DNA of 64,000 bases from Candidatus Zambryskiibacteriota bacterium (GTDB taxonomy: Bacteria; Patescibacteriota; Minisyncoccia; Phycocordibacterales; WO2-35-19). Position numbers and translations under genes: made by a program. The notes under the pieces were generated by a model that was given only the letters and a program-made list of their open reading frames with translations, was not told where the DNA came from and did no database searches. The DNA lies in contig JAFGCQ010000004.1 of the NCBI GenBank assembly GCA_016932555.1, positions 990 through 64,989 of the forward strand. The letters are read 5' to 3'. Below are positions 1,002 through 61,705 of the stretch, piece after piece. How positions within the stretch are numbered: position 1 is the stretch's first letter; each line of letters opens with the position of its first letter.

Positions 1002-1928
1002 TTATTGAATCTTGCAGACTCTTTGAAGTTCCGCTAGATCTTCTGGGGTGAGATTCAGAGAAGTTTGATTATCGCCGCTTGATAGATAATACATAATCGA
1101 ATCTGGATTATCGACATGCTCTAAACCTAGGGCGTGACCAAATTCGTGTGTTAGAGCTAATATCAAGTCTTTTTTATTGCCATATTGATAAACATTTATC
1201 TCTTGACCATTATATTCGGCTTGGTTGAACTCTAGCCCTCTATCGTATCGTTTATTATAATCTCTGGCTATTTGATTGTATTCAGATGCTTTATTGTTGC
1301 GAGTCTTTAAAAGTGTATTTAATTCAACACCCATTTGGTTTACAGCAGAAGCTTCGGTGTTTAATCTTAAAGCTTCAGAGTTTAAATAATGTCTTTCTGC
1401 TTCCAAAGATTCAAATATGGCTTGTAAGGCACCTGCCTGCGCAGGCAGGCCGCCTCTACTATTCCAATCTTGGACTTCGGCTTCATAAGCTGCTTTGCGA
1501 CTTTGAAATATAGCTAAAGCTTTTTCATAAGCGGAAACTCGGCTTTCATATTGGTTTTTAAAACTATTGAATTCCTGATCCAATTTTTTAAAAACTTCTT
1601 CAATAGCTGAAAGACCAAATTCAGTTCTCTGTTTTTGCAAGGTAGCCAGCTGTCTTTCATCGTAAACTAAATTAACCTTAAAATCGGCTCCCTCTTCGTA
1701 AGAAAAAACATTTTTATTCAAGGCCCTCTCCCAAACTTCCTCGGCTTCAAACAAATAAATTTTAAATTCAGCTTCAGTAATACCAAACTCTGTGTCAAAT
1801 CGACCAATTTCGTATTTAAGAGCCCGATCGCAAGGGTTTAAAGTCTTTTCATAAACAAAGTAGCCTGAAGCGCCGATGAGCGCCAAAAGCGCTATTATCG
1901 CCAAGCCATTTCCCAGTTTTTTTAGCAT
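1002..1928 (-). CDS. Membrane-anchored metzincin (matrixin/M10-like) zinc metalloprotease
   Basis: HEFGHALGLEH (HEXXHXXGXXH) followed by a Met-turn SIMYY. N-terminal TM helix, then coiled-coil-rich region. Confidence 0.7.
   Translation of the reverse strand: MLKKLGNGLAIIALLALIGASGYFVYEKTLNPCDRALKYEIGRFDTEFGITEAEFKIYLFEAEEVWERALNKNVFSYEEGADFKVNLVYDERQLATLQKQRTEFGLSAIEEVFKKLDQEFNSFKNQYESRVSAYEKALAIFQSRKAAYEAEVQDWNSRGGLPAQAGALQAIFESLEAERHYLNSEALRLNTEASAVNQMGVELNTLLKTRNNKASEYNQIARDYNKRYDRGLEFNQAEYNGQEINVYQYGNKKDLILALTHEFGHALGLEHVDNPDSIMYYLSSGDNQTSLNLTPEDLAELQRVCKIQ
1432..1449. repeat. GC-rich perfect palindrome CCTGCCTGCGCAGGCAGG, copy 1. It lies in-frame inside the metzincin gene and encodes LPAQAG.
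   Basis: 18-mer identical to 61389-61406. With flanks it forms a 20-nt identity, GGCCTGCCTGCGCAGGCAGG, on the coding strand. It is GC-rich in an AT-rich gene. Confidence 0.85.
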
Positions 1929-2000
1929 AAATTAAATATATCATAAAAAAGCCGCCCCAATAAAAATAATTATCAAGGCAGCTCGCTTTTAAAAATAAAA

Positions 2001-2396
2001 CTAATGCACCTCTTTGGAAAAAACAAAGGACATAAAGAAATCTTGCTGCTCTTTTCTCGCTAGAGCATCTTTGATTGCTGGCCTTAGTATCTCAGACAAG
2101 GCTTCAGCCGCTTCAATAGTAAGTAATAATTTAATTCTTCTTTTACCGCCGCGCCTCACAAGTTCCAATTGCATAGGCTCAAGCTTGCCGTTTTTTACAT
2201 CTTGCGGTCCAATTTTTTGCTGGAAGACAAGTATTAAATCACTTGAATAAACTCCAGCTGGAAATACAGATACTTGTCGGCCACCACCAAGAAATCTGCA
2301 ATAAGCCATAGGTTTTTTGAGCATGTTGAAACAGTTAAAGAATGTTTTGAGCATAAAGACCTCCTTCTGCCTTAGATAATACCCAAAATTTCGCAA
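2001..2396 (-). CDS. hypothetical protein
   Basis: 131-aa ORF with no recognisable motif. The start may be an internal Met. Confidence 0.3.
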   Translation of the reverse strand: MRNFGYYLRQKEVFMLKTFFNCFNMLKKPMAYCRFLGGGRQVSVFPAGVYSSDLILVFQQKIGPQDVKNGKLEPMQLELVRRGGKRRIKLLLTIEAAEALSEILRPAIKDALARKEQQDFFMSFVFSKEVH

Positions 2397-2415
2397 AAAA
2401 CAATCTCCAACAAAG

Positions 2416-2448
2416 AAAAAAGGAGGAGGGCTCCCCTTCTCCTTTTTG
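2416..2448. terminator. Bidirectional Rho-independent terminator-like hairpin
   Basis: AAAAAGGAG...CTCCTTTTT stem with a GC-rich loop. It is flanked by A and T runs on both strands. Confidence 0.5.
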
Positions 2449-2646
2449 AGTGTGGTCTAATATTTTTTACCTTGACACAGACTACTTGTCCTGAGTTGAG
2501 CCGAAGGAGTGGTTTACTATGAGCCTGTCGAATAGACGATGCCCGCCACGTGATAAATTGTGTAGCAATTTATTTTACGTGGTTAGAACTGCAATTATGA
2601 GTAACCACACGCATTTTCCTGAAATAATTTATGCTAAAATAACTTC

Positions 2647-3129
2647 ATGAAGAAAATCAATATTTATATTGATGGAAATAATCTTTATCGCAGTGCCAAA
2701 GAACTCGGATTTGAAATTGATTATAAAAAATTTAGAGGCTGGCTTCGCCAAAAATACAATCCGCAATTTGTTTATCTTTTCATAGGTCTCGTTCCAGAAA
2801 GGGCAAAATTCTATGAATATTTGCAAAAATCAGGGTTTATTTTGGTTTTCAAACAAACCGTATCGGTTGGAGAAAAAATAAAGGGAAATTGCGATGCAGA
2901 ATTAGTGTTAAAAACCACTTCTGATTTTTATACCAAAGCTTTTGATTCCTGTATTTTAATAACAGGAGATGGGGATTTCGGCTGTTTGGTAGAATTCTTG
3001 CAAGAAAATAAATCGATGAATCGTGTTATAGCTCCCGATGAAAATAAATGCTCTTTTTTATTAAGAAATAAAAATGTTGAGATAACATTCTTAAACGACC
3101 ACTACCACAAGTTTTCTAAAAAGATATAA
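2647..3129 (+). CDS. NYN-domain (LabA-like / DUF88) predicted nuclease
   Basis: IYIDGNNLY ... NCDAELVLK ... ITGDGDFGCLVEFL pattern typical of NYN/LabA domains. Confidence 0.6.
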   Translation: MKKINIYIDGNNLYRSAKELGFEIDYKKFRGWLRQKYNPQFVYLFIGLVPERAKFYEYLQKSGFILVFKQTVSVGEKIKGNCDAELVLKTTSDFYTKAFDSCILITGDGDFGCLVEFLQENKSMNRVIAPDENKCSFLLRNKNVEITFLNDHYHKFSKKI

Positions 3130-3258
3130 AAGAAAAAGCCCCCGGTGCAGACGAATCTACACAAGGGTCTTTTTCATAGTGATACCTAGAGTATATACCT
3201 AAAAAAATATCTGTCAAGCAAAGTTGTGGATGATGTTAGAACTGATATATTAAAAAGA

Positions 3259-3293
3259 AAAAGCCCGTTGATATTATCTCTGGGCTTTGTTTA
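3259..3293. terminator. Rho-independent terminator-like hairpin (AAAAGCCC-loop-GGGCTTTGTTT)
   Basis: GC stem flanked by A/T runs, between the convergent NYN gene and ORF 3334-3705. Confidence 0.5.
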
Positions 3294-3333
3294 CCGAGAA
3301 GAGTTTTTAACCCAATCCTCCTCGCCCTTAACT

Positions 3334-3705
3334 TCATGCAGGGCTTTGAACACTGAGTGTTGAGTATATGTTTTCCAGAGATATTCGGTTTTCTATCCCT
3401 GCTGCACCAGGAGCATCTGCACTTCCACGAATTTCAGGATGCTGATAATGCCAGTTGCGAGTCCATTCTTTGTCAGTCTCAACAATAACTGCATCAACTG
3501 GTATTCCATGTTCTTTAGCAAAGACAAAAATACTCGCTACAGCAATCTGACCGTTCAAACAGAATGCTTTATTTCCCAAGTATTCAATAACCTGTTCAGC
3601 GTTATTGTTCAGATTCTGGCGCAAATAAAAATAAGAGTATTTTGGTGAAATATTCGTTGGCGCGACCGATGGGATTTGGTCAGGAATATCCCACCCTTCA
3701 GTCAA
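3334..3705 (-). CDS. Hypothetical protein, GC-richer than its surroundings. Possibly horizontally acquired or a gene remnant.
   Basis: 123-aa ORF with local GC near 50 percent against about 33 percent background. Its 5' end overlaps a partial duplicate of the tRNA-Asp 3' end. No recognisable family. Confidence 0.35.
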   Translation of the reverse strand: MTEGWDIPDQIPSVAPTNISPKYSYFYLRQNLNNNAEQVIEYLGNKAFCLNGQIAVASIFVFAKEHGIPVDAVIVETDKEWTRNWHYQHPEIRGSADAPGAAGIENRISLENIYSTLSVQSPA

Positions 3706-3862
3706 GGGCGGGATTTCACGACCCTGGCTCGCCTGTTTTGATTGCTATCAAAACATAGCTGTGCCTTTCAAGTCACCAACGCAAGCCAGAGCAGTCTGGC
3801 TTGCTTCTGTTCCGAGCATAGACACAAAAATCACTAGCAGAAACTAGTGATTTTTGGTCTTG

Positions 3863-3937
3863 CGCGACCGATGGGACTTGAACCCACAACCTCCCGCGTG
3901 ACAGGCGGGTGCTCTAACCAAGTTGAGCTACGATCGC
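3863..3937 (-). tRNA. tRNA-Asp (anticodon GTC)
   Basis: Acceptor GCGATCG/CGGTCGC, D arm GCTC..GAGC, anticodon stem CCCGC/GCGGG with loop CTGTCAC, T arm GTGGG-TTCAAGT-CCCAT. CCA is not encoded. Two hairpins follow on the minus strand. Confidence 0.8.
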
Positions 3938-4052
3938 ATTTTTATATATTTTTCAAAAATCTCTCTTTTCCTTTTTAGAAATAATTTTGAAAAACCTATC
4001 CTATTATACATAAAATCATAGAGTTTTAAAGACCCTATGCTATAATTTAAAC

Positions 4053-4256
4053 ATGCAACCAGAAGAACAAAATAAAATAGCCGAACTAGAGGCTAAGATT
4101 GACGCAATTTATAAGTCAGTCGAGAAAACTCGTAAAATAATGCTTTGGACGAGCATAATTACTGCAGCAGTCATCATTTTGCCACTAATCGGGCTCTTAT
4201 TCGTGATACCTTCGTTTATAGATTCTTACACTACTGCTCTAGACGGCCTTCTGTAA
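4053..4256 (+). CDS. Small membrane protein (one TM helix), hypothetical
   Basis: 67-aa ORF with a C-terminal hydrophobic helix. A TATAAT box ends only 6-7 nt upstream of the ATG, suggesting a leaderless transcript. Confidence 0.4.
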   Translation: MQPEEQNKIAELEAKIDAIYKSVEKTRKIMLWTSIITAAVIILPLIGLLFVIPSFIDSYTTALDGLL

Positions 4257-4467
4257 GCTTATTCCTCATTTCTATAATCATAGTAGTAAACCAAGTTAAG
4301 AAAGAAGCCAGGCCAACAACAAAAAAAGTTAGAACATATTGCATGATAGTGTTTGGCCCTTGAGATGACTGCTCCATAGGGCCCCAAATAGCTATGAGCA
4401 TGAGAATAGCGGTAATCACCATGCAGGAAAGGAATATTCTTAATGTGGCTTTTTGTAATTTGCGCAT
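4231..4467 (-). CDS. Small membrane protein (two TM helices), hypothetical
   Basis: 78-aa ORF, convergent with 4053-4256 and overlapping its end. Confidence 0.35.
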   Translation of the reverse strand: MRKLQKATLRIFLSCMVITAILMLIAIWGPMEQSSQGPNTIMQYVLTFFVVGLASFLTWFTTMIIEMRNKLTEGRLEQ

Positions 4468-4542
4468 ATTTTATTAAATTATTTTTAATGGCTTGTCATG
4501 TGGGACGTGAATTTGCGAAGTGAATTTTTACGTTCTTTACGT

Positions 4543-4618
4543 GGTGCCGACGATTGGACTCGAACCAATGACCTGGCGCTTATGAAACACCCGCTCTAAC
4601 CACCTGAGCTACGTCGGC
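4543..4618 (-). tRNA. tRNA with CAT anticodon. Elongator Met or Ile2-lysidine type, not initiator.
   Basis: Acceptor GCCGACG/CGTCGGC, D arm GCTC-AGGTGGTT-AGAGC, anticodon loop TTCATAA, T arm ATTGG-TTCGAGT-CCAAT, CCA encoded. No GGG/CCC in the anticodon stem, so not initiator. Confidence 0.75.
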
Positions 4619-4716
4619 AATATATCCTTAAATTATCCACATTTTTGGTCATTTTGCAAAGCTTTGTTTCTTAATTTTTTTATGGTAAACTGCAATTTAC
4701 AGATTGGTTTTGTTAT

Positions 4717-4787
4717 TGCGGGGTAGAGTAATAGTAACTCGCAAGGCTCATAACCTTGAAATTTTGGTGCAAATCCAAACTCCGCAA
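4717..4787 (+). tRNA. Second CAT-anticodon tRNA or tRNA-like. Atypical T-loop TGCAAAT. Possibly tRNA-Ile2 or Met, or a pseudo-tRNA.
   Basis: Cloverleaf: acceptor TGCGGGG/CTCCGCA (7 bp, one GU), D stem GAGT/ACTC, anticodon stem CAAGG/CCTTG with loop CTCATAA, T stem TTTGG/CCAAA. Position 55 is G, which is unusual. A terminator hairpin follows at about 4836-4865. Confidence 0.5.
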
Positions 4788-4922
4788 CCGCGTAAAAGAA
4801 TTGCTGCGCAATTCTCACGCGGCTGCGCCAGCAAGCCGAGTGAACAAAAACACCCATGTTGGGTGTTTTTGTTTTAAGCGAGCCACGTTATGAGCGATAG
4901 CAAATTTTACATGGCCATGATT

Positions 4923-5597
4923 TTAAATAAGATAAAACTCTTTAAAGACCGCTTCATAGAGGGAGATGATGCGGCGAATTTCACGCTGATTGACCAAAAA
5001 ATCGTTGCCTTCGTGAGCAATCTTATTGCGCGCTTTATGAGCTTCCCAGGCTAAGTCTATGGTTACAAAATCGCTTTTTTCTACAACTTTCATTTTGTCT
5101 GCCATTGTGTCACCTGGCAGTTTAAGTTTTTCCAAGAGTTCATCAAGCATGATATCAGCTTCTATGATAGCAAGTCTCCAATCTGAAGAGTTTTCTGATT
5201 CTGAAAGTTTTACAATTCTTTCCCATTTTTCATTTTTTTTATCTTTACTTGAACTTTCCATTGGAATATTTGCTAGCATATCTGATGGATAAACTTTAGC
5301 TCTTTCTTCCCGTGAGATTCGATTCCATTTCTGGGTGAATACATAAGCAGCAAACATAGCAAAAAGAGCAATAATTAAACTAAGGATTTTCCACCAAAAA
5401 GCAGTGGATTTAAAGAAAGCTATTATACCAACTAGTTTAATACCATAAAAAGAAATTTCTCCAGAAATAAAATAATTTATGATATTTGGCACTATAGCGC
5501 CGACAATAGCGGTCAAAAATAAAAGTACTACCGTCATTTCTACAGCATCAAAATTCCAACCCTCTAACCAACTCTCTGATTCTTTGTCATTATTCAT
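4923..5597 (-). CDS. Membrane-anchored protein with a C-terminal DUF4145/HEPN-like domain
   Basis: Three N-terminal TM helices. The C-terminal region GDTMADKMKVV...LAWEAHKARNKIAHEGNDF fits the DUF4145/HEPN Rx4H signature. Confidence 0.5.
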   Translation of the reverse strand: MNNDKESESWLEGWNFDAVEMTVVLLFLTAIVGAIVPNIINYFISGEISFYGIKLVGIIAFFKSTAFWWKILSLIIALFAMFAAYVFTQKWNRISREERAKVYPSDMLANIPMESSSKDKKNEKWERIVKLSESENSSDWRLAIIEADIMLDELLEKLKLPGDTMADKMKVVEKSDFVTIDLAWEAHKARNKIAHEGNDFLVNQREIRRIISLYEAVFKEFYLI

Positions 5598-5609
5598 ATT
5601 TTAAAATTA

Positions 5610-7079
5610 TTAAGTTGTCTCTCCCAGAAAATTTTTGCCAATTTCGAATAAAACATTTTCATTGCCATGAGCAGACATAAGTTGTATGCCAATCGGCAGA
5701 TCTTTGTCATTTATTTTAGCAAATCCAGACGGGATCGAAATAGCGGGTATGCCGGCGATATTAGCTGTAACCGTAAAAATATCAGCCAGATAATTTTCTA
5801 AGGGGCTAGTTTTTTCTCCTATCTTCCAGGCTGGTGTCGGAGCCGTCGGAGTTAAAACTACATTTACTTCATTAAAAGCTTTATTGAATTCATTCTTAAT
5901 AACTTCTCTAGCTGCCATAGCTTTGCCATAATAAGCGTCATAATAGCCGGCTGAGAGCACGTAGGTGCCAAGTATAATCCGCCTTCGTACTTCCGGACCT
6001 AAGCCTTCACCCCTAGTTTTTTTGTAAACTTCCATCAGATTACTTGTCCTGAGCGGAGTCGAAGGGTTGCCGTCCAAAGATAAACCGTATTTGATACCAT
6101 CATATCTGGCCATATTTGATGAGACTTCTGCCGGCATAATTATGTAATAAATAGTGAGTGATTTGTCTATATTTGGTAGTTTAATATCTTTAATTTCAAA
6201 ACCCAAATTTTTTAATTTTTCTACTGATTCTTCAAAATTTTCTTTCACTTCTCTCGAAATACCATCCTGCTCAAGTAAATGATAAGGCACGCCGATTCTT
6301 AAATCCCGAGATGAATCTTGGAGTGACCCGACCGATTTGCCGTCATGGCGGACAGGAATATGCGAAGTGCTATCATACTTGTCCTGACCTTTTATAACAT
6401 TAAAAATTATTTCAGCATCAGCAACTGATTTAGTGATAGGTCCTATTACATCAAGAGATGACCCCATGGCCATAAGGCCATAGCGAGATACGCTGCCGTA
6501 AGTTGGCTTCAACCCTACACAGCCACAAAAGCTGGCTGGTTCCCTGATTGAACCACCCGTATCCGATCCTAAGGCTCCTAGAGCCATATTAGCCGCTACA
6601 GCGGCCGCAGAGCCACCAGAAGAGCCACCAGCTACTTTTTCCGGATCATGGGGATTTCTGGTCACTCCAAACGCTGAATTCTCGGTAGAGCCACCCATAG
6701 CGAATTCATCCATATTGGTTCTGCCTATAAATATTCCATTTTGTTCAAGAATTTTCTTCGCTGCAGTAGCTGTGTATGTCGCTTTGTAATTTTCTAAAAT
6801 CTTAGAAGCAGCGCTGGCCTTCTTGCCTTTTATTAAAATATTATCCTTTATAGCTAAAGGTATACCGGTTAAATCTTTGGAATCGCCTTGATCAATGATT
6901 TTTTGAGCCAATTTGGCTTGCTCTAAAATATCATCATAAACTTCCAAATAAATATTAAGTTCTTTATTTTTATCTTCAATCTGCAGAAGGGCACCTTCTG
7001 TAAGTTCTTTAGCCGAAATCTCTTTGCTATCTAGCAATTTTCTCGCTTCTTTAATTGTCAAATCTTCTATTTGTGTCAT
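5610..7079 (-). CDS. gatA: Asp-tRNA(Asn)/Glu-tRNA(Gln) amidotransferase subunit A
   Basis: Amidase signature GGSSGGSAAAVAANMALGALGSDTGGSIREPASFCG. 489 aa. Confidence 0.9.
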   Translation of the reverse strand: MTQIEDLTIKEARKLLDSKEISAKELTEGALLQIEDKNKELNIYLEVYDDILEQAKLAQKIIDQGDSKDLTGIPLAIKDNILIKGKKASAASKILENYKATYTATAAKKILEQNGIFIGRTNMDEFAMGGSTENSAFGVTRNPHDPEKVAGGSSGGSAAAVAANMALGALGSDTGGSIREPASFCGCVGLKPTYGSVSRYGLMAMGSSLDVIGPITKSVADAEIIFNVIKGQDKYDSTSHIPVRHDGKSVGSLQDSSRDLRIGVPYHLLEQDGISREVKENFEESVEKLKNLGFEIKDIKLPNIDKSLTIYYIIMPAEVSSNMARYDGIKYGLSLDGNPSTPLRTSNLMEVYKKTRGEGLGPEVRRRIILGTYVLSAGYYDAYYGKAMAAREVIKNEFNKAFNEVNVVLTPTAPTPAWKIGEKTSPLENYLADIFTVTANIAGIPAISIPSGFAKINDKDLPIGIQLMSAHGNENVLFEIGKNFLGETT

Positions 7080-7107
7080 TCGTTTTTTATTTGTAATTAG
7101 TGTCGTG

Positions 7108-7395: not shown

Positions 7396-7415
7396 ATTTG
7401 GATTATAGCATTTTC

Positions 7416-10052
<2,637 letters not shown>

Positions 10053-10065
<13 letters not shown>

Positions 10066-34544: not shown

Positions 34545-35363
34545 TTATAGATTATAGTAGCATAAATCTGATAAATTTTGAAATAAACAAGCTATAGTTA
34601 GAGGTCCGATACCTCCCGGTACTGGTGAAATTGCTTTTAATTTATTAACTAATTCAGTAAAATCAACATCGCCCACTATTCTATCTTTCATCTTGTTTAT
34701 TCCTACATCAATAACTACCTGTTCTGGATTTATAAATTTCTCCGTTATAATACCTGCTTTACCGACAGCTGAAATTAATAAGTCGCATTTTTTTGCAATT
34801 TTTTCCGGATTTTTGGTATTGATGTCACAGCGAAAAACTTTTGCACCTCTTTTTTCAAGCTCATCAGCTATAGGTTTACCAGCTAAAATTGACTGGCCTA
34901 TAACTGCCGCTTTTTTGTCTTTAATTTCAAAATTATAAAAATTTAACAACGATATAACTGCACGTGCTGTGGCTGGAATAATTCCACTTCCTGATACTAG
35001 CCCGTCTACATCTTTTCTTTTATCAATCAAATTTATTATCTTTTCTGAATCAAAACCTTTAGACCTGCCTGCGCAAGCAGGTAATGGTAACTGTACAATA
35101 ATTCCATCTACGCTTTTATCTCCATTTAATTTTTTAATCTCTTCTATTAATTCTTTCTCAGTAATATCTTCGTTAAAATTCTTTAACAAAACTTCTACTC
35201 CGATCTCCTCTCCAAATTTGCGCTTGTTTTTAATATAAATACTTGAATCCGGCCGATCTCCAACTTGCACAATGGCTAAACAAGGCTTGCAGCCCAATTT
35301 TTTTACCCTCCTTATTAAATCTTCTTTAATTTTCTCCTTAACAGGAGCCCCATATAAAATCAT
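34545..35363 (-). CDS. folD: Bifunctional methylenetetrahydrofolate dehydrogenase/cyclohydrolase
   Basis: FolD patterns IVQVGDRPDS, LPLP, DVDG, GIGP. 272 aa. Confidence 0.85.
   Translation of the reverse strand: MILYGAPVKEKIKEDLIRRVKKLGCKPCLAIVQVGDRPDSSIYIKNKRKFGEEIGVEVLLKNFNEDITEKELIEEIKKLNGDKSVDGIIVQLPLPACAGRSKGFDSEKIINLIDKRKDVDGLVSGSGIIPATARAVISLLNFYNFEIKDKKAAVIGQSILAGKPIADELEKRGAKVFRCDINTKNPEKIAKKCDLLISAVGKAGIITEKFINPEQVVIDVGINKMKDRIVGDVDFTELVNKLKAISPVPGGIGPLTIACLFQNLSDLCYYNL
35064..35081. repeat. GC-rich palindrome CCTGCCTGCGCA(a)GCAGG, copy 2 (one mismatch). It lies in-frame inside folD and encodes PACAGR.
   Basis: 17 of 18 positions match the 1432-1449 and 61389-61406 palindrome. It sits where orthologous FolD has a shorter LPLPA-G segment. 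Confidence 0.75.
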
Positions 35364-49588: not shown

Positions 49589-50692
49589 ATGAGGTACGAG
49601 ATAAAAATAGAAAAATTGCCAAAATCTGAGGTAAAACTGGAAATATCACTTCCAGCCGAATTTTTAGATGAAGCTAGAAAAAAAGCAATAAGGAAATTTT
49701 GCGCTGAATTGGAGGTACCGGGATTCAGAAAGGGTAATGTGCCGGAAAATATCGCCATCGAAAAAGTCGGTGAAAACAAAATATTACAGGAAGCAGTGAA
49801 TATCCTCCTACAGGAACATTTTCCAAAAGTGATAGAACAGGAAAAACTTGATATAATTGGTCGACCGAATATTTCTATAACTAAGCTAGGACTCGGCAGC
49901 CCAACAGAATTTAAGGTTGAGTTCGCTACTCTGCCCGTTTTCAAATTGCCAGATTATAAAGAGATAGCAAAAAAATTAAGAATTGCGAATAACGAATCAA
50001 GAAAAGAAAAAAAGATAGAAGTCACTGATAAAGAGGTTGACGATGTACTTTTACAAATCCGGAAAAATAAGGCTCATTTTGATTGGCATAAAAGTCATCC
50101 AGAAGAGAAATCCGCCCAAGGCGGATCCGCCTTGGACGGAGGCCACAATCATCCAGAAATAAGAGATGAGGATCTGCCGCCACTGGATGATAAATTAGCA
50201 GAGGAAGCTGGTAATTTCAAAAATTTGGATGAACTTAAGGCCAAAATCAAAGAAAACATAAAATTCGAAAAAGAAAATAAAGAAACCGAAAAATTAAGAG
50301 CCGAAATTATGGAAGAATTATTAAAAGCGACCAAAATAGAAGTTCCAGATATATTAATAGAGAGCGAAATCGATAAAGCTTTAGCCCAGATGAAAGGTGA
50401 TATTGGAAGAATAGGTGTTAAATTTGAAGATTATCTAAAGCAGGTCAAAAAAACTGAAGAGGATTTGAAGAAAGAATTAAGTAGTAGCTCAGAAAAAAAA
50501 GCCGGCATCCAGCTTATCTTTAATAAAATTGCCGAAGCTGAAAAACTTGAGCCTAACAAAGAAATTTTAGAAAATGAAATTAAACACCTGATGGAGCATT
50601 ACCCCGACGCCTCCGAACAAAACGCCCGCATTTATGTTACCACCATTCTCCTAAACCAAGAAGTATTAAAACTTTTAGAAAATCAAAAATAA
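49589..50692 (+). CDS. tig: Trigger factor (short form; no recognisable PPIase domain)
   Basis: N-terminal ribosome-binding domain with GFRKGNVP motif. 367 aa. Confidence 0.8.
50116..50135. repeat. 20-bp GC-rich perfect palindrome CCAAGGCGGATCCGCCTTGG, in-frame inside tig (encodes AQGGSAL in a linker)
   Basis: The sequence is exactly self-complementary. It is GC-rich inside an AT-rich gene. Confidence 0.8.
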
Positions 50693-53006: not shown

Positions 53007-53007
53007 A

Positions 53008-53030: not shown

Positions 53031-53095
53031 TTGAAAAAATCATCAACATTTTGGACGATCGTCAAATTTGTCAATGAAAAATTATATGATAAGCT

Positions 53096-55803: not shown

Positions 55804-55838
55804 GATTCTAATGACTCTAAAATTTTTAATTTTTAAAA

Positions 55839-56633
55839 CTATCTTGTCAAAACTTCTATTCCATTCTTTGTAACCGCTACTGTATGCTCAAAATGAGCAG
55901 AAAGAGATTTATCACGAGTAATAAAGGTATAGCCATCAGAGAGACGCTTGATTTCACGACTACCTAAAGAAAACATCGGCTCAATAGCAATAACTAGCCC
56001 TTCTCTAAGTTCCGGCCCTTCGCCCCTCTCGGCTCGATTGGGTACATACGGTTCTTCATGGACACTATAACCTACCCCGTGACCTGACAAGCCTTCTATT
56101 ATGCCCAAATTGTATTTCATAGCCACTTGCATAATAGCCGCCCCAATATCACCTATATGGCCACCGATTTGCATAGTGTTAATGCCTTTTTCTAAAGCTT
56201 CATAAGTCGCTCTAATGAGAGTCGCGGCATCATCGCTAATTTTACCAACTGGTACAGTAATGGCTGCGTCAGTAATCATGGGTCTTACTTGTGGTGAACC
56301 AGTCAAACTATAAGTAAAACCCATATCCAAAGAAACGATATCTCCTTCAAATAAAATCCGATTGCCGTCATGATTTGGAATACCGTGAACAATTTCTTCA
56401 TTTATGGAAACACAAAGCGAGGCCGGGTAGGGTTTTGAAGCATCATCAGATTGATAGCCAAAAAAAGAGCCGACGCCACCCGCTTCATCGATAAGTTTTT
56501 CGGCGTAATCATTAAGCTCTTGAGTTTTAACCCCTGCTTTAACTTTTTGGGCCACTTTTTTTAAAATCTTCGCGTGAATCTTACCTCCTTCCCGCATCAC
56601 TGCTATTTCTTCTTCTGTTTTGTATTTGATCAT
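55839..56633 (-). CDS. map: Type I methionine aminopeptidase
   Basis: Pita-bread-fold metal ligand pattern. 264 aa. Confidence 0.85.
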   Translation of the reverse strand: MIKYKTEEEIAVMREGGKIHAKILKKVAQKVKAGVKTQELNDYAEKLIDEAGGVGSFFGYQSDDASKPYPASLCVSINEEIVHGIPNHDGNRILFEGDIVSLDMGFTYSLTGSPQVRPMITDAAITVPVGKISDDAATLIRATYEALEKGINTMQIGGHIGDIGAAIMQVAMKYNLGIIEGLSGHGVGYSVHEEPYVPNRAERGEGPELREGLVIAIEPMFSLGSREIKRLSDGYTFITRDKSLSAHFEHTVAVTKNGIEVLTR

Positions 56634-57220
56634 AATCCAATTTTGCTTATTATCTCTTTATGAACTTCATCGATTGTTTGTTCGCCGTTTATTTCTATAA
56701 ATTTATAATAGTGATTGTTTTTGAGATATTCCACAGTTGGTAAAACTTTTTCTTTAAACCAATCTAGCCTGTTTTTTATATCTTCTTCATTGTCATCAGT
56801 CCTGCCTCTATCTTTCATTAGCTTGGTAACCCATTCATTTGAAGCATTTATCGAAATAACCATTGGGTTCTCTCTTTCATAAAATTTTAAAGCATCACTC
56901 AGTATATACGCTTCACCAAGTTTACGAGGTGTACCATCAAAGAAAATAGTCACATCTGGAGAAAGCTCTTCAACCAAGCGCTTAGTCCAAATGTAGATAG
57001 GCATAAACTCAGGAACTAATTCACCCTGATCTAAAATTTTTTTGACTCTTTGGGATGTGAAAGATTGGGTTTGGGTAAGTTTTCTAAATCCTTCCCCAGT
57101 TTCTATATAGATAATTTTTTGCTCAGGATATTTTTTCTTAATTTCTTCCTGTAGGAGCTTAGCTTGGGTACCCTTACCGCAACCAGATGGCCCTAAAAAT
57201 ATGAAAGTTTGCGGTTGCAT
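56630..57220 (-). CDS. adk: Adenylate kinase
   Basis: P-loop GPSGCGKGTQ. The start is chosen at the ATG matching the conserved N-terminus (MQPQTFIFLGPSG). Confidence 0.8.
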   Translation of the reverse strand: MQPQTFIFLGPSGCGKGTQAKLLQEEIKKKYPEQKIIYIETGEGFRKLTQTQSFTSQRVKKILDQGELVPEFMPIYIWTKRLVEELSPDVTIFFDGTPRKLGEAYILSDALKFYERENPMVISINASNEWVTKLMKDRGRTDDNEEDIKNRLDWFKEKVLPTVEYLKNNHYYKFIEINGEQTIDEVHKEIISKIGL

Positions 57221-57264
57221 GAAATAAGTATAACATAAATCCCCCACTCGGGACTAGTCCTCGA

Positions 57265-57285
57265 CCTCCCCTTGATCAGGGGAGG
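57265..57285. repeat. GC-rich hairpin element hp1 (CCTCCCC-TTGATCA-GGGGAGG)
   Basis: Same stem/loop family as 57680-57702, 58407-58429 and about 32262-32287. Preceded by a GGACTAGTCC palindrome. Confidence 0.7.
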
Positions 57286-57305
57286 CAATGCGCGATAATT
57301 AGGAA

Positions 57306-57656
57306 ATGACAAGAGTTCATAATATCCGCAAACTTTCAGATCGCAGGAAAGAATTACGAAAAAACCAAACAAAAACCGAAGAAAAACTCTGGTGGTATTT
57401 GAAAGATAAGAGGCTGGGAATTAAATTCAGAAGACAGCACAGTATAGGAGGATATATTTTAGATTTTATATGCAAAGAAAAGAAATTGATTATAGAAATT
57501 GATGGTAGAGTACATTTGAAAAAAGATAATAAAGAATACGATAAAGTTAGAGACAAATATTTTGAAGAGTTAAATTATAAAGTTCTGAGATTTACGAATG
57601 ATGAGGTTGAAAATGGGGTTAAAGAGATTATTGATGTTATAAAGCGGTATCTTTAA
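57306..57656 (+). CDS. DUF559-domain endonuclease-like protein (Vsr/PD-(D/E)XK-related)
   Basis: LWWYLKDKRL ... RRQHSIGGYILDFIC ... IIEIDGRVH ... D..R...L...GYKVLRF pattern typical of DUF559. Confidence 0.65.
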   Translation: MTRVHNIRKLSDRRKELRKNQTKTEEKLWWYLKDKRLGIKFRRQHSIGGYILDFICKEKKLIIEIDGRVHLKKDNKEYDKVRDKYFEELNYKVLRFTNDEVENGVKEIIDVIKRYL

Positions 57657-57657
57657 C

Positions 57658-57702
57658 CCCCACCCCTCAATTCGTGTAGCCCTTCTCTTGATCAGGGGAG
57701 GG
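57658..57702. repeat. Left terminal inverted repeat (26 bp, CCCCACCCCTCAATTCGTGTAGCCCT) plus hairpin hp2 (CCCTTCTC-TTGATCA-GGGGAGGG)
   Basis: 25 of 26 positions match the reverse complement of 58426-58451. It begins 1 nt after the DUF559 stop codon. Confidence 0.8.
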
Positions 57703-57721
57703 AAAACCAAAATCATACAAA

Positions 57722-57748
57722 AAGAAAACCGCCATTCAGCGGTTTTCG
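57722..57748. terminator. Bidirectional terminator (AACCGC-CATTCA-GCGGTT with flanking A/T runs)
   Basis: Lies between the convergent DUF559 gene and ORF 57771-58322. Confidence 0.6.
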
Positions 57749-57770
57749 GTTGAAAATCATTGAAGAGCGA

Positions 57771-58322
57771 TTATATCAAAATCCTCCCATTATACTCATG
57801 GAACCCGATTTCTCCACTGGTAGCCGTGAAAAAAATATGCTCCATTCCAGCAAAATTTTCGAATCCGCCCCCGAGAAAAATAGTGTTTTCATACTTAAGA
57901 AGGTTTTTATCATAGTTTCCTACACGAGTATCATTATAAAAACCGTGTGTAGCTAAACCTCGTCCACCATGGAATTCACGTTGTTTGTAGGCGTAATTAA
58001 GCGCCATTTTCAAAAAACTGATCACTTCCTTAGGATAACATCCAGAATAAGACATCCACCACACGGCCATCCATCTTCCTCTGGGTCTGAACCTATAAAA
58101 GATAGTGGTTGTACCGGCGGAAAAATCTGAAAGCGGTGTCACACAATAGTGATCTACCACTTTGTAGTTACCGGATACAAAAGTGATTCTTTTGTATCCG
58201 CTAGATTCTATGACTTTAACAGAATTCTTTTTGTTTCCAGCATATCCGTCAAGCATAGCATCGAAGAATACTTTTTCTGCTTTTTGAATGATTTTCTTTC
58301 TCTGTTTGGACTCTAGTTCCAC
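57771..58322 (-). CDS. Hypothetical protein carried on a TIR-bounded cassette. GC-richer than the host genes.
   Basis: 183-aa ORF at about 42 percent GC against a background of about 33 percent. No recognisable motif. Confidence 0.45.
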   Translation of the reverse strand: MELESKQRKKIIQKAEKVFFDAMLDGYAGNKKNSVKVIESSGYKRITFVSGNYKVVDHYCVTPLSDFSAGTTTIFYRFRPRGRWMAVWWMSYSGCYPKEVISFLKMALNYAYKQREFHGGRGLATHGFYNDTRVGNYDKNLLKYENTIFLGGGFENFAGMEHIFFTATSGEIGFHEYNGRILI

Positions 58323-58406
58323 TGTTGGCTCCTTTCACCCATTAGGTCTGACTCAGGTTATACAACAATATAAAAATTAAAGCAAGAATAAAAAATACCG
58401 CGCGTT

Positions 58407-58451
58407 CCCTCCCCCGTCCAGGGGGAGGGCTACACGAAGTGAGGGGTGGGG
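58407..58451. repeat. Hairpin hp3 (CCCTCCCCC-GTCCA-GGGGGAGGG) plus right terminal inverted repeat (26 bp)
   Basis: The reverse complement of 58426-58451 is CCCCACCCCTCACTTCGTGTAGCCCT. It ends 1 nt before the secY stop codon. On the minus strand the hairpin plus a T run also serves as the secY terminator. Confidence 0.8.
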
Positions 58452-58452
58452 A

Positions 58453-59724
58453 TTAATATTCTCTTGCAGAGATTTGAGCATCAACTTTTTTAACGAGATC
58501 AAGAACCACTGAAACTACGATAAGAAGTCCTGTACCGCCTATAGCCACTGCGCTGATACCAGTAGCCGCCCTTACTATTAAAGGCAAAACAGCAATTAAT
58601 CCCAAGAAAATAGCGCCAATCATGGTTAAACGGGAAAGGATTTTGGCTATATATGAGGAAGTCGAGGAACCGGGTCGAACTCCCGGAATAAAAGCACCGC
58701 CTCTCTGTAAATTTTTGGAAAGATTCTCCGGATCAAAAGTAATAGCTGTGTAGAAATAAGTAAAAACAAAAACTAATAAGAAGTAGGCAATGCCATAAAA
58801 AATCTGGTTAGAAAGCAAAGCAAGTAGAAATTCAGAAATCTTTTGGATTATAGTATTGTCTACATTAGCTAAAAAGCGGATTATCATTTGAGGAAAAAGT
58901 AATATGGAAAGAGCAAAAATTATAGGAATCACCCCAGCTTGATTAACTCTTAAAGGTAAATAAGTGGAAACTCCACCATACATTTTATTACCTCTAACTT
59001 GTTTAGCGTAAGTTATCGGTATGGGTCTTTCTGCTTCAGTAATAACTACTACACCCCAAATCACTGCTATGGCAGCCGCCAGAAAGCCAATATACATCGG
59101 CAATTGAGATGGATCAAAAGCAAATAAAAGCTGGCTAGTCGCACTGGGTAAAATAGCAACAATGCCGGCAAAAATGATAAGCGAGACTCCGTTACCAATA
59201 CCAAATTCAGATACTAACTCACCAAGCCACATAAGAAGCATTGAACCGGCAGCAATTACTATAAGATTTGTTAGCAATTCAAAACCAGCAAGTTTACTTA
59301 AAACATTCTGATTTTGAAGAAGAATAATAAAAGCATAACCTTGCATTAAAGCTAGAGGCACAGTCAAAAATCTTGAATATTGAGAAAATTTTCTGCGTCC
59401 TAATTCACCCTCTTCTTGATACATAGCCTTGAGTTTAGGAAACATAACAGTCATAAGCTGCATAATAATAGAAGCGGTAATATATGGCGACACACCGAGC
59501 ATAATAATTGAAAGATTAGACAAACCACCACCCGAAAAGATATTTAAAAGTCCAAAGAAATCATTATCAGACATAAACTGCTCTAATTTAAAAGTATCAA
59601 TACCGGGAATTGGGATAGAGGCCATCAAACGGAAGAGAGCCAACATTACAAGGGTAAAAATTATTCTCTTTCTTAAATTTTTATCCCCTAAGACTAATTT
59701 TATTTTGTGAATAAAATTTTGCAT
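58453..59724 (-). CDS. secY: Preprotein translocase subunit SecY
   Basis: 10-TM SecY pattern. 423 aa. Confidence 0.9.
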   Translation of the reverse strand: MQNFIHKIKLVLGDKNLRKRIIFTLVMLALFRLMASIPIPGIDTFKLEQFMSDNDFFGLLNIFSGGGLSNLSIIMLGVSPYITASIIMQLMTVMFPKLKAMYQEEGELGRRKFSQYSRFLTVPLALMQGYAFIILLQNQNVLSKLAGFELLTNLIVIAAGSMLLMWLGELVSEFGIGNGVSLIIFAGIVAILPSATSQLLFAFDPSQLPMYIGFLAAAIAVIWGVVVITEAERPIPITYAKQVRGNKMYGGVSTYLPLRVNQAGVIPIIFALSILLFPQMIIRFLANVDNTIIQKISEFLLALLSNQIFYGIAYFLLVFVFTYFYTAITFDPENLSKNLQRGGAFIPGVRPGSSTSSYIAKILSRLTMIGAIFLGLIAVLPLIVRAATGISAVAIGGTGLLIVVSVVLDLVKKVDAQISAREY

Positions 59725-59729
59725 TCAAT

Positions 59730-60149
59730 TTATTTGCTTAAATTTTTGACCTTTTTTGAAGTTTCAATATTTTCAAAAATAAAGTTTTTCTTTATTTCTT
59801 TATCAGCTAAAATTTTTGCTTTCGGAATTCGGCCGTTCTTTTTATTTATAATACCTTTTTCTAACAAAACTTGATGATTTATCTTATCTCCTGCAGAAAA
59901 ATTTTTATCTAAAATGGAAAGCTTTATTGGCATAGCTTTTTCAAGTCGAGACTTAAGAAAATTTTTACCTCGACCTCTTAATTTTGGTAATTTTTTAATT
60001 ATATCACGCATTTCTGGTCTTTTTTTCCTGCCGGCCCTGGCATTTTGGCCTTTGGTGCCGCGACCAGAAGTCTTGCCGCGTTTACCCCCCCGACCAATTT
60101 TTTTGGCTTTCCGATTAGTTCTATTTTTTTTTAAATTATGGAATTGCAT
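59730..60149 (-). CDS. rplO: 50S ribosomal protein L15
   Basis: GRGGKRGKTSGRGTKGQ glycine/arginine-rich N-terminus. Confidence 0.85.
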   Translation of the reverse strand: MQFHNLKKNRTNRKAKKIGRGGKRGKTSGRGTKGQNARAGRKKRPEMRDIIKKLPKLRGRGKNFLKSRLEKAMPIKLSILDKNFSAGDKINHQVLLEKGIINKKNGRIPKAKILADKEIKKNFIFENIETSKKVKNLSK

Positions 60150-60177
60150 TGCACGAATATTACTAATAAGATTAAGT

Positions 60178-60789
60178 CTAAGAATTAATTTTTACTTTTT
60201 CTTTATTTTTCTCTTTCAGTTGTAAAAGAGCTTTTACCGCAGCTCTGGCAATATTAAGCTTGTTTTTTGATCTGGAAAGAATTTTTGAAGAAACTTCTTT
60301 TATCCCAGCCAGTTCGAGAACTACTCTCACTGCACTGCCAGCAATCACTCCTTTCCCAGGAGCAGGATTAAGAAATATTTCAGCACTAGCGTATTTGGTA
60401 TTTACCGGATGAGCAATAGAGCCTTTGTCAGTTAAAGATACTTTAATTATATGTTTTTTTGCGTCTCGGATAGCTTTTTCTATGGCAATAGGAGTATCAC
60501 CAGCTTTACCAATACCCACACCCACTCTGCCTTTTCTATCGCCAATTACTACCACAATACTAAAACTGAACCTGCGACCACCGGCAACTACTCTGGTTAC
60601 TCTTCTAATGTCTATTATTTTATTATCAAACTCTTGTTTAACCCTTGCCGGACGTCGAGAAGGTCGGCGTTCATTTTTTTGTCGAAATTTAGTTTTATTT
60701 TCATTTTTAAAATTGTTGTTTATTTTAGTTTTTTTATCAGTTTTTTCAACTTCTTTTCTATCTTCTTTTTTTATTTCTTTTTCTTCCAT
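60178..60789 (-). CDS. rpsE: 30S ribosomal protein S5, with a K/E-rich N-terminal extension. No rpmD (L30) between S5 and L15.
   Basis: RVVAGGRRFSF ... GIGKAGDTPIAIEKA S5 core. Confidence 0.9.
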   Translation of the reverse strand: MEEKEIKKEDRKEVEKTDKKTKINNNFKNENKTKFRQKNERRPSRRPARVKQEFDNKIIDIRRVTRVVAGGRRFSFSIVVVIGDRKGRVGVGIGKAGDTPIAIEKAIRDAKKHIIKVSLTDKGSIAHPVNTKYASAEIFLNPAPGKGVIAGSAVRVVLELAGIKEVSSKILSRSKNKLNIARAAVKALLQLKEKNKEKVKINS

Positions 60790-60800
60790 AATAATTTTAA

Positions 60801-61148
60801 TTAAAACTCTAAACCAGCCTTCCTGGCACCCTGGGCTAAAGCAGCAATTCTACCAGTATAAAGATAGCCCTCTCTATCAAATACTACTTTAGTGATTTTT
60901 TTGGTTTTAGCTTGTTTAGCGATTTCTGCCCCAACTTCACCTGCTTTATCTAAAACCGATTTACTTTTAATGTTTTTGCTAGAAGCAAAAGCTAAACTTA
61001 CACCTTTTTCATCATCAATAAGTTGAGCAGAAATATATTTATTCGATCTAAAAACAGAGAGTCTGGGTCTTTCTGCTACACCAAAAATTTTAGCTTTTAT
61101 ACGCTTTTTTCTCCTGTTTCTTTTTTCTGTTTTTAATTTAGTATTCAT
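60801..61148 (-). CDS. rplR: 50S ribosomal protein L18
   Basis: [19 protein letters not shown] pattern. Confidence 0.9.
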
Positions 61149-61153
61149 AACTT

Positions 61154-61705
61154 TTAAACTGTTTTCTTACCTTGTTTTCTTCTTATAATTTCATTCTCAT
61201 AACGAAAACCCTTGCCTTTATAAGGTTCCGGTTTTTTTAAGCTTCTTACTTTGGCAGTAAAAGCTCCGACTAACTCTTTATCAAAACCAAATATAGTAAT
61301 GAGATTCTTTTCAGCTTTTACTTCCAAGCCGTCAGGGATTAGAACTTCTACCGGATGGGAAAAACCCAGAGAAAGAATCAACTTATTGCCTGCCTGCGCA
61401 GGCAGGCCATTAACTTGGGATTTAAAACCTACGCCTTCTAATACTAATTTTTTTTCAAAACCATCATTAACTCCTTTTATCATGTTTTTTATATGAGAGG
61501 CATAAGTACCCCATAGAGCCTTAGTTTGATTATTTTCTTTGGGTATAGAAAGATTGATATGATTTTCTTCAATTTTAATTACTACATCATCACGAAATTT
61601 TCTTTCCAATAAACCTTTTGGACCTTTCACAAAAAAAACGTTATCTTTTAAGGAGACTTCTGTACCTGGTAGTATCTTTATTTCTTTTTTACCTATTCTT
61701 GACAT
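61154..61705 (-). CDS. rplF: 50S ribosomal protein L6
   Basis: Two L6 repeats, LSLGFSHPV. Contains an inserted LPAQAG palindrome. Confidence 0.9.
61389..61406. repeat. GC-rich perfect palindrome CCTGCCTGCGCAGGCAGG, copy 3. In-frame inside rplF, encodes LPAQAG.
   Basis: Identical to 1432-1449. The coding strand shares the 20-mer GGCCTGCCTGCGCAGGCAGG with the metzincin gene. Confidence 0.85.

Follow-up and report, generated by a model that had tools for sequence, protein, structure and literature searches.

The 64,000 nt of contig JAFGCQ010000004.1 (GCA_016932555.1) from a Candidatus Zambryskiibacteriota bacterium that were analysed here, referred to as the window, contain a short palindrome, CCTGCCTGCGCAGGCAGG (the 18-mer), inside three protein-coding genes, where it constitutes an exact insertion of six codons relative to the orthologs. 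The same 18-mer is dispersed over the Candidate Phyla Radiation (CPR; Patescibacteria) and further phyla, and it is identical to the terminal 9 bp plus the terminal 9 bp (CCTGCCTGC and GCAGGCAGG, the half-sites) of the inverted repeats of a 282-291-bp element whose only gene encodes a GIY-YIG nuclease. With a probability of roughly two thirds, this element of about 285 bp gave rise to the 18-mer, either as a footprint of its excision or in the form of a minimal derivative. Loci outside the window are numbered with L, and proteins with P.

When the window was scanned with up to 3 mismatches allowed, exactly three matches to the palindrome were found, two of them perfect and one with a single mismatch, which bears out the positions given in an earlier reading of this sequence (the original prediction); 100 dinucleotide-preserving shuffles of the window yielded none, such that the recurrence is not due to chance, as had been supposed. 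Two figures need correction: The GC content, given as about 33% for the genome, was measured at 35% in the window, and the perfect palindrome, thought to comprise 20-22 bp, extends over 18 bp in the peptidase copy and over 20 bp in rplF. All three copies are situated within minus-strand open reading frames (ORFs), as follows (slashes here and below mark insertion boundaries):

1002-1928, minus strand: host gene 1, Peptidase_M10-like (Pfam), metzincin-like, 308 aa, secreted or membrane-anchored, with the motif HExxHxxGxxH.
1432-1449: copy A, perfect CCTGCCTGCGCAGGCAGG, with the minus-strand reading GG/C CTG CCT GCG CAG GCA GG/T, translated as LPAQAG.
34545-35363, minus strand: host gene 2, folD (methylene-tetrahydrofolate dehydrogenase/cyclohydrolase), with the insert just past the conserved VQLPLP strand.
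35064-35081: copy B, one mismatch (CAAGCAGG; CCTGCCTGCGCAAGCAGG), read in the PACAGR frame (protein LPLP-ACAGRS-KGF).
61154-61705, minus strand: host gene 3, rplF (ribosomal protein uL6), with the insert as residues 101-106.
61389-61406: copy C, perfect, forming with its flanks a 20-bp palindrome at 61388-61407.

The peptidase insert stands directly after WNSRGG (protein context RGG-LPAQAG-ALQ), the folD copy has an insertion boundary that is ambiguous by 2 nt, and the rplF copy splits a Gly codon between its second and third base (AAT GG/C AAT). In an AlphaFold2 model of uL6, residues 94-99 and 108-113 are the strands of a beta-hairpin whose turn consists of the insert, and the predicted local distance difference test score falls below 50 at residues 101-104. 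The three hosts had been labelled essential or housekeeping genes, which is too generous for the peptidase, as it is not known to be essential. Isolated half-sites are absent from the window, hence it contains no longer element with the ends of the 18-mer.

Alignment with orthologs confirmed that the copies in rplF and folD are exact six-codon insertions, as originally proposed, and the same was found for the peptidase. Concerning L6, the site is empty in 117 of the 120 nearest orthologs, which read KSQV------xGxKL; of the other three, one is the protein of the window itself, P0004 shares its insert, and P0090 has another insert, of 4 residues. Nearly all orthologs are 177 aa long, compared to 183 aa in the window, and solved L6 structures show the same 6-residue gap against the window protein. 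FolD is gapped in 18 of 18 nearest orthologs (VQLPLP------KxFD) and identically in E. coli, and the peptidase exhibits an exact 6-residue gap past RGG in 13 of 13 homologs (RGGAx------). At the DNA level, the empty rplF site of the relative L153 reads GTA AAT GGC AAT AAA, so that the rplF allele of the window corresponds to the native sequence plus the 18-mer between GG and C. The original prediction had named AT-rich codons for the six residues as a sign of an ancestral sequence; such codons occur in no sampled ortholog of the three host genes. Insert-bearing L6 and FolD proteins are recorded from an NCBI metagenome-assembled genome (MAG) and from an independent Logan assembly, and a further 48 clear coding cases of the palindrome insertion exist beyond the window.

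Other small insertions were noticed among these orthologs: a FolD protein (P0128) contains near its N-terminus 'RACLPAG' (7 aa), probably a CCTGCC..GGCAGG relative, a peptidase (P0241) contains the insertion 'SGNPPVQAG', and three L6 genes (L208, L211, L222) carry AT-coded 4-aa inserts in the same loop as the window insert.

The recurrence outside this genome, for which the original prediction had proposed a search, is considerable. A scan for the exact 18-mer in one genome per species revealed at least 120 loci among species-representative genomes, with a chance expectation of about 1 match in the whole genome collection at 40% GC. Among the matches listed, the titles name Patescibacteria/CPR (many classes) in 71 cases, Bacteroidota in 15, and 'uncultured Gammaproteobacteria/Pseudomonadales' in 10, the rest being mixed and including WOR-3; two cultured isolates, Litoribacter ruber and Rosettibacter primus, are also among them. 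A phage origin was rejected, since only 25 viral contigs possess the 18-mer, most of them with 58-67% GC and compatible with chance.

Boundaries were analysed in the flanks of 105 copies at loci with a GC content of 52% or less. The only bias concerns the adjoining base at each end, a purine (R) before and a pyrimidine (Y) after the 18-mer, i.e., insertion at an R/Y step; the base read outward from the 18-mer is Y in 82% of the coding and 72% of the non-coding copies. Direct repeats flanking the 105 copies, as expected for a target-site duplication, do not exceed chance, and no target-site consensus beyond R/Y was found in the flanks of either coding or non-coding copies. Clean pairs of filled and empty sites differing by 18 bp exist for a tRNA-Gln 5' fragment, for L108 versus L115, and for rplF.

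The 18-mer is free of stop codons in all frames, which read LPAQAG, PACAGR, and CLRRQ. Frame use is far from even: the 48 unambiguous coding cases comprise 37 in LPAQAG, 9 in PACAGR, and 2 in CLRRQ (chi-square p = 5e-10). Around 63% of the copies lie within ORFs of at least 120 aa, and 33 of 90 lie outside long ORFs, whereas around 10% would be expected from typical CPR coding density. This excess of non-coding copies, together with the frame bias, indicates that the insert is translated and filtered by selection. The hosts are ordinary housekeeping genes, and their products (FtsW/RodA, topoisomerase and primase (Toprim), class I tRNA synthetases, Mur ligases, SHMT, Pol I, GatB, UvrD, TrmD, PheT, superoxide dismutase, and type I restriction subunits) and the insertion positions have no common theme. 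On its own, the 18-mer folds into a hairpin of 7 bp with a GCGC loop (-6.5 kcal/mol as DNA, -11 kcal/mol as RNA).

Two further candidate explanations were tried on these loci and rejected. A conserved neighbour gene was not found, as no family occurs at more than 5 of around 100 loci (all-against-all BLASTP of 1621 ORFs within 2.5 kb of copies). Telomerase-like or iterative addition of (CCTG)n at breaks is contradicted by 847 kb of sequence with 108 copies of the 2+2 form, only three other forms, and no 1+1 or 3+3 series.

Among the hosts, Fe/Mn superoxide dismutase genes (L081, L083, L120) account for 3 of around 100 sampled copies, in different CPR lineages and at different positions. This exceeds the expectation for one family; high expression or horizontal transfer of sod are possible causes. 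In a pilin-like gene (L029:4554-5387), the 18-mer gives LPAQAG/WTLAELLIVVAI, such that the Gly encoded by the element takes the -1 position of a prepilin-peptidase-type cleavage motif.

The L6 loop is a place of repeated insertion and decay. In P0004 (L001, from a Joint Genome Institute sample), an identical 18-mer interrupts the rplF Gly codon at exactly the nucleotide where it does so in the window, although the immediate flanks differ, the two genes are only 72% identical, and there is no conversion tract; the nearest relatives of the window and L001 genes (79% and 88% identity) have an empty site. Gene conversion or transfer of an rplF segment was thus rejected for the insert shared by P0001 and P0004, as the identity is confined to the element. 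For an unbiased estimate, 80 metagenome rplF loci (781 kb) picked by L6 homology were screened. They contain 1 perfect copy, 2 copies with one mismatch, and 1 with two mismatches, i.e., around 1 copy per 200 kb, with decayed copies as common as perfect ones. One of the decayed copies (CCTGCCCGCGCAGGCGGG, two mismatches, L189) is situated in rplF 2 nt upstream of the window site in another frame (PARAGG), and a one-mismatch copy in the rplF of L184 lies inside a 36-bp insert, SARLPAQPGVGG. The L6 loop of P0090 contains another GC palindrome, CCCCGGGG. Altogether, the 18-mer was present in 2 of 120 and then in 2 of 80 L6 genes, in non-sister lineages, and members of the palindrome family have entered the loop on at least four independent occasions. 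The repeated hits show that the loop tolerates insertions, and their coincidence at one place is explained by random insertion under strong structural filtering, without any specificity beyond R/Y.

The longer element was seen in the HsdR gene of a WOR-3 MAG (L073), which contains a canonical 18-mer, a GIY-YIG domain inserted in frame between GCAGGCAGG/CCTGCCTGCGCCGCGCCCCGGACAA and TTGTCCGCGGCGCGGCAGGCAGG/C, and a 39-bp unit (CCTGCCTGC-GCCGCAAAGTGAAGCGGCGCG-GCAGGCAGG, encoding LPAPQSEAARQAG). With the module and its flanks as protein query, 77 homologs were obtained, which share the core ..YVL.C.D.S.YIGQT...R..H.....WT.....H.E.F.SREEAV.RE..LKTGFGRKWLKRE and the junctions (D/N)LPAPRP before and (A/T)RQAG after it. 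The module is embedded in unrelated hosts (MGMT, MsrB, TrmD, HsdR, HsdS/M-like proteins, DUF899, and a methyltransferase); the MGMT junctions, for instance, are PCHRV..SD/LPAPRP...RTRQAG/G..GGY. Of 21 flanked modules of full length, 18 use the LPAP frame and 3 the CLPRR frame. Full-length elements were delimited at five loci:

L073: full-length element of 291 bp.
L231: full-length element of 282 bp.
L232: full-length element of 291 bp.
L233: full-length element of 285 bp.
L234: full-length element of 282 bp.

All five lengths are divisible by 3, and all five elements have a single open frame, R/Y steps at their boundaries, and no target duplication; L231 to L234 stem from four different sources with 39-52% GC. 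The ends are (R)CCTGCCTGC-GCCGCG.. and ..CGCG-GCAGGCAGG(Y), within GC-rich inverted repeats of about 17-22 bp; four of the five loci match the termini exactly, and the left end of L234 (ACTGCCTGC) is one base off. When CCTGCCTGC...GCAGGCAGG is removed from L231, the canonical motif of MGMT, PCHRVIKSD-GNVGGY, reappears, which means that the long element has the same outer boundaries, the same R/Y preference, and the same lack of a duplication as the 18-mer.

Intermediates of 39 bp (CCTGCCTGC plus 21 nt plus GCAGGCAGG) occur in L073 and in L233, where the full-length element is directly followed by a second mini of this kind; the tandem junctions at both loci are end-to-end (GCAGGCAGG/CCTGCCTGC). 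In 2 Mb of loci, units bounded by half-sites measure 18 bp (around 110 cases), 39 bp (2), or 282-291 bp (5) only. These three size classes with nothing between them argue for the 18-mer as a discrete product and not as the outcome of random deletion.

The only gene of the element encodes a nuclease similar to UPF0213 and Slx1 (PF01541, E = 2e-12 to 1.5e-17), and the GIY-YIG motifs Y-V-(Y/L)...YIGQT...R..H...E are conserved among the homologs. The nearest solved structures are the UPF0213 proteins 1ywl and 1zg2 (EF2693, BH0048), with Slx1 as a weak third. The nuclease thus belongs to that branch of the GIY-YIG superfamily which includes Slx1, a structure-specific nuclease. The searchable literature assigns no function to UPF0213, and a search of it found no description of the 18-mer, of its peptide, of such palindromes in CPR, or of an in-frame GIY-YIG element.

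Given the abutted termini, the 18-mer would be either a footprint of the element or its most reduced non-autonomous derivative. The element would have inserted in frame at an R/Y step, the host being translated through it as LPAPRP-(GIY-YIG domain)-ARQAG, and the 18-bp form (LPA/QAG) would be the element minus its whole interior. This form might have originated in two ways: as a footprint that remains after the nuclease cuts 9 nt inside each end of a hairpin or cruciform of the inverted repeats, or as the smallest hairpin (7-bp stem, GCGC loop) that the nuclease still mobilises in trans. In either case the GIY-YIG nuclease, presumably the mobilising enzyme, would recognise a hairpin or cruciform formed by the element termini. 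Owing to its length of 18 bp and the lack of stop codons, the insert adds six small residues and survives purifying selection in surface loops, which accounts for its presence in L6, FolD, and the peptidase of the Zambryskibacteria genome. The footprint variant explains the LPAQAG bias neatly, given the frames of the modules (18 LPAP, 3 CLPRR).

As to the 'tiny mobile palindromic insertion element' of the original prediction, its core stands insofar as the copies are discrete in-frame 18-bp insertions of mobile-DNA origin that are tolerated by their hosts; nothing shows, however, that the 18-mer is autonomous or self-contained; it equals the pair of 9-bp termini of the 282-291-bp GIY-YIG element.

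Several observations weigh against a derivation from this element. None of the 77 homologs is a full-length variant in the PACAGR frame, which speaks against a pure footprint origin of the folD copy with its PACAGR reading. A full-length element with these termini has not yet been seen in Patescibacteria-labelled contigs, and no UPF0213-like GIY-YIG gene of the element family was found in the 64-kb window. The GIY-YIG genes examined in CPR (L030, L113, L041, L012, L083, L235, L238) are free-standing relatives with about 40-57% identity, mostly situated beside tRNA genes and not bracketed by half-sites. GIY-YIG enzymes are hydrolytic nucleases with no known strand-transfer activity, which gives no explanation of how the element integrates. 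For an 18-mer to be identical in very distant phyla, it must have spread horizontally in recent times, or else its termini must be under strong constraint. Finally, near-identical strains that differ by an insertion or excision were not observed, and no site was found at which close relatives exhibit both the occupied and the footprint state.

The order of events could also be reversed, in line with the homing or restriction-like target signature that the original prediction offered as its alternative, with the 18-mer being the site of the GIY-YIG nuclease and a cassette of about 264-273 bp (GCCGCG...CGCG) homing into its centre. Each full-length copy is consistent with a half-site, a cassette, and a second half-site, the cassette has inner inverted repeats of its own, and homing endonucleases often recognise sites of 14-40 bp. 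Such a landing pad is nevertheless an unlikely account, as it leaves unexplained the exact 18-bp indels of the 18-mer in dozens of unrelated genes. Moreover, no case of a half-site duplicated around the cassette was seen, the end-to-end tandems in L073 and L233 fit R/Y insertion beside an element and not into its centre, 9 bp of homology per side are too short for RecA-dependent homing, and the canonical MGMT genes suggest native empty alleles without the 18-mer.

A second alternative is a repetitive extragenic palindrome (REP)-like element that is moved as single-stranded DNA by a Y1 (HUH) transposase of the REP-associated tyrosine transposase (RAYT) or IS200 type and has no relation to the GIY-YIG gene. 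The palindrome is GC-rich and without target duplication, intragenic REPs are known (PMC3733652), and the Bacteroidota copies are situated in intergenic palindrome mosaics, where they are sometimes preceded by GGTAGCGG, a GTAG-like tag; a Y1_Tnp gene also adjoins the element-rich HsdR gene of L073. The CPR copies, however, have neither a GTAG or CGTC tag nor any other conserved flank, and a tblastn search with E. coli RayT through 2 Mb of loci hit only L073 (E = 0.04) and noise. Since around 1 copy per 200 kb in the unbiased sample is far below REP families, REPs are species-specific whereas the 18-mer is identical across phyla, and the identity with the termini of the GIY-YIG element would be left unexplained, we regard this alternative as rather improbable.

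The third alternative, a selected DNA or RNA site (a parS-like binding site or a regulatory mRNA hairpin) instead of a remnant of mobile DNA, appears highly improbable. It would account for the perfect sequence kept across very distant lineages and for the low copy number per genome, as well as for the five copies in tRNA-Gln fragments (see below) that are all perfect despite differing flanks; near ascertained copies, there were 85 perfect matches, 3 with one mismatch, and 0 with two or three. Such 'perfect or nothing' conservation is in part a matter of ascertainment, as copies with one and two mismatches occur in the unbiased sample, where decayed copies are as many as perfect ones. A selected site is further contradicted by the scattered presence and absence among close relatives (the non-sister L6 genes, 2 of 120 and 2 of 80), by the lack of a shared theme of hosts or positions and of a recurring neighbour family, and by the exact 18-bp indels, an origin which a binding site would not need.

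An adapter, synthetic oligonucleotide, or assembly chimera, a worry raised in the original prediction and suggested by the sequence being identical everywhere, blunt without target duplication, and hosted mostly by MAGs, has a practically negligible probability, as the strong reading-frame bias is impossible for an artefact, the same rplF nucleotide is hit in an independent sample and one tRNA-Gln site in five MAGs of different studies, variants with one or two mismatches remain insertions of exactly 18 bp, the 18-mer is present in cultured isolates (Litoribacter ruber, Rosettibacter primus), and a biological relative exists in the full-length GIY-YIG element.

There is a substantial chance, although somewhat short of even, that the GIY-YIG element represents a previously undescribed class of mobile elements: a cassette of about 285 bp bounded by GC-rich inverted repeats, with a UPF0213/Slx1-like GIY-YIG nuclease as its sole gene, that inserts at R/Y steps without target duplication, is translated as part of the host protein, and leaves or propagates the LPAQAG 18-mer.

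Some further loci with palindromes deserve mention. In five CPR lineages, a 5' fragment (or decoy copy) of tRNA-Gln is interrupted by the 18-mer between nt 9 and 10:

L030:1723-2105: tRNA-Gln-fragment copy.
L113, around 728, minus strand: tRNA-Gln-fragment copy.
L041:6792-7173: tRNA-Gln-fragment copy.
L040:3540: tRNA-Gln-fragment copy.
L045:372: tRNA-Gln-fragment copy.

The 18-mer is perfect in all five, the flanks of the fragments have diverged, and an intact tRNA-Gln follows 30-400 nt downstream of the split fragment. A small UPF0213-type GIY-YIG ORF is situated between the fragment and the intact tRNA-Gln in L030 and L113, and just upstream of the intact tRNA-Gln in L041. An analogous architecture with different palindromes exists for tRNA-Asn in a Yanofskybacteria lineage (L235:1200-1811 and L237, P0441): the GIY-YIG ORF runs with its 3' end into the beginning of tRNA-Asn, and upstream there are two tRNA 5' fragments with palindromic inserts after nt 9, one of which contains AGGCTGATCAGCCT. 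This curious architecture is probably related to the element, and it constitutes a second link between UPF0213 nucleases and palindromic inserts.

A second GC-rich palindrome, aatccgcCCAAGGCGGATCCGCCTTGGacggagg, is found in the window at 50108-50143 (perfect core 50116-50135), within the trigger factor gene (49589-50692, plus strand), where it encodes part of the linker between Trigger_N and Trigger_C. Relatives of about 34 bp with the structure TTCCGCC-nn-AGGCGGATCCGCCT-nn-GGCGGAA are situated in frame at the C-terminal ends of two ORFs in other CPR contigs (L157:6665, L174:6119); both ORFs lie upstream of rplF and are taken to be ribosomal-protein genes. Palindromes of the AGGCGGATCCGCCT type are also found in L209 and L023, and beside the GIY-YIG gene in L012. 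A third palindrome, TCCGCCAGCTGGCGGA, recurs in CPR and Bacteroidota at a distance of 40-200 bp from the 18-mer:

L069:2040-2095: TCCGCCAGCTGGCGGA locus.
L108:4898-4978: TCCGCCAGCTGGCGGA locus.
L115:5424-5486: TCCGCCAGCTGGCGGA locus.
L110:5737-5903: TCCGCCAGCTGGCGGA locus.
L100:7450-7668: TCCGCCAGCTGGCGGA locus.

The context of this palindrome is formed by intergenic mosaics of GC-rich hairpins resembling bacterial interspersed mosaic elements (BIMEs); between L108 and L115, two paralogous regions within one genome, the difference is an exact 18-bp variant unit, CCTGCTTGATCAGGCAAG.

Concerning other mobile genes, the ribosomal-protein cluster of the window contains just upstream of the S14 gene a reverse transcriptase of 351 aa (62420-63475, minus strand), which matches RVT_1 and is most similar to the reverse transcriptase/maturase of group II introns, although its score does not come near the cut-off of that family. 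Next to it stands the palindrome CGTCCGTCAGCCGACGGACG, with a hairpin at 62365-62384. The window yielded no intron RNA family, and Rfam gathering scores were not reached by any group II intron RNA there. A cruciform signal of a diversity-generating retroelement was rejected for this reverse transcriptase, as a pair of template and variable repeats is lacking in 56-64 kb. The Y1_Tnp gene of L073 (7479-7985, minus strand; IS200-like/RAYT, assigned to Y1_Tnp by Pfam) is flanked by a different REP of the GTAG type, and it contains in frame a 30-bp GTAG-type palindrome, TGTAGGGGCGAACGGCCGTTCGCCCCTACA, encoding part of NPVGANGRSPLHR.

If the proposed derivation is true, no dispersed insertion element smaller than the 18-mer would be known from bacteria, and selfish DNA would persist in essential genes of minimal genomes by being in frame, free of stops, and confined to loops. 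Conserved proteins such as uL6 would recurrently receive insertions of six or about 95 residues, and the 18-mer would decorate ribosomal proteins, tRNA synthetases, cell-division proteins, and metabolic enzymes across CPR and other phyla. Its base-for-base sharing across Patescibacteria, Bacteroidota, and WOR-3 would point to a conserved enzyme specificity or to extensive inter-phylum DNA traffic with CPR. A GIY-YIG nuclease as the sole gene between inverted repeats would be an unexpected candidate for the autonomous partner; to our knowledge, none of the transposase classes of catalogued insertion sequences (DDE, HUH, serine, tyrosine) is a GIY-YIG nuclease. For the orphan UPF0213/YhbQ family, this would be a first and testable function. 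In practice, inserts of the 18-mer confound ortholog alignments and phylogenomic markers of CPR but can be masked once recognised, and they could mark past activity of the element.

The analogy to Rickettsia palindromic elements drawn in the original prediction holds for the behaviour, which also resembles that of intragenic REPs. Both the Rickettsia elements and the 18-mer are palindromic repeats lying in frame in genes, including essential ones, and translated as extra segments; both are dispersed in small AT-rich genomes and have no transposase in the repeat itself. The Rickettsia elements, however, are around 100-150 bp long and restricted to Rickettsia, whereas the 18-mer comprises 18 bp, is identical across phyla, and leads back to the ends of an element that encodes a nuclease. 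They are also CGTC-tagged (PMC3733652), whereas the 18-mer is untagged.

With REPs and REPINs, the 18-mer shares the form of a short GC-rich hairpin palindrome without target duplication, some REPs being intragenic (PMC3733652). In Bacteroidota and some intergenic regions of CPR it is also part of BIME-like mosaics. REPs are imperfect palindromes of 20-40 bp with a GTAG or CGTC tag and tens to hundreds of copies, whereas the 18-mer is perfect, untagged, and present at around 1 copy per 200 kb; a GTAGCGG-like prefix was seen only in one Sphingobacteriales MAG. REPs are furthermore species-specific and mostly extragenic, whereas the 18-mer crosses phyla and is situated mostly in ORFs. The gene associated with REPs is RAYT, that associated with the 18-mer a GIY-YIG nuclease, the hit in L073 being the one plausible RAYT among its loci.

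Similarity to MITEs (miniature inverted-repeat transposable elements) lies in the termini, which are identical to those of a longer coding element, and in the size series of 282-291, 39, and 18 bp. MITEs usually measure 50-500 bp, exhibit target-site duplications, and derive from insertion sequences of the DDE type, whereas the 18-mer shows no duplication, retains only 9 bp per end, and has a GIY-YIG-encoding parent. Excision footprints of transposons such as the P-element and hAT elements are short palindromes of the outermost inverted-repeat bases at the former site, to which the 18-mer would correspond in view of its 9 + 9 terminal bases and discrete size. Palindromic footprints of this kind, mostly heterogeneous, are left by DDE/RNase-H-fold transposases of eukaryotes; we know of no prokaryotic element that leaves a uniform, frame-preserving footprint of 18 bp.

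GIY-YIG genes are known mobile genes, and the full-length element resembles GIY-YIG homing genes in that its sole product is a GIY-YIG domain (PF01541). GIY-YIG homing genes of the classical type stand alone or lie in introns, with one cognate site each, whereas the element is bounded by inverted repeats and inserted as an in-frame domain into many unrelated hosts. Inteins, mitochondrial GC clusters, and byp elements are alike as in-frame selfish insertions or GC-rich mobile hairpins. Beside the module, however, there are no Hint or splicing motifs as in inteins, Pfam giving only GIY-YIG and the host domain, and the frame bias indicates that the 18-mer is translated and not bypassed, unlike byp elements. 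In its behaviour, the 18-mer is thus closest to Rickettsia palindromic elements and intragenic REPs, and in its derivation it is closest to MITEs and excision footprints.

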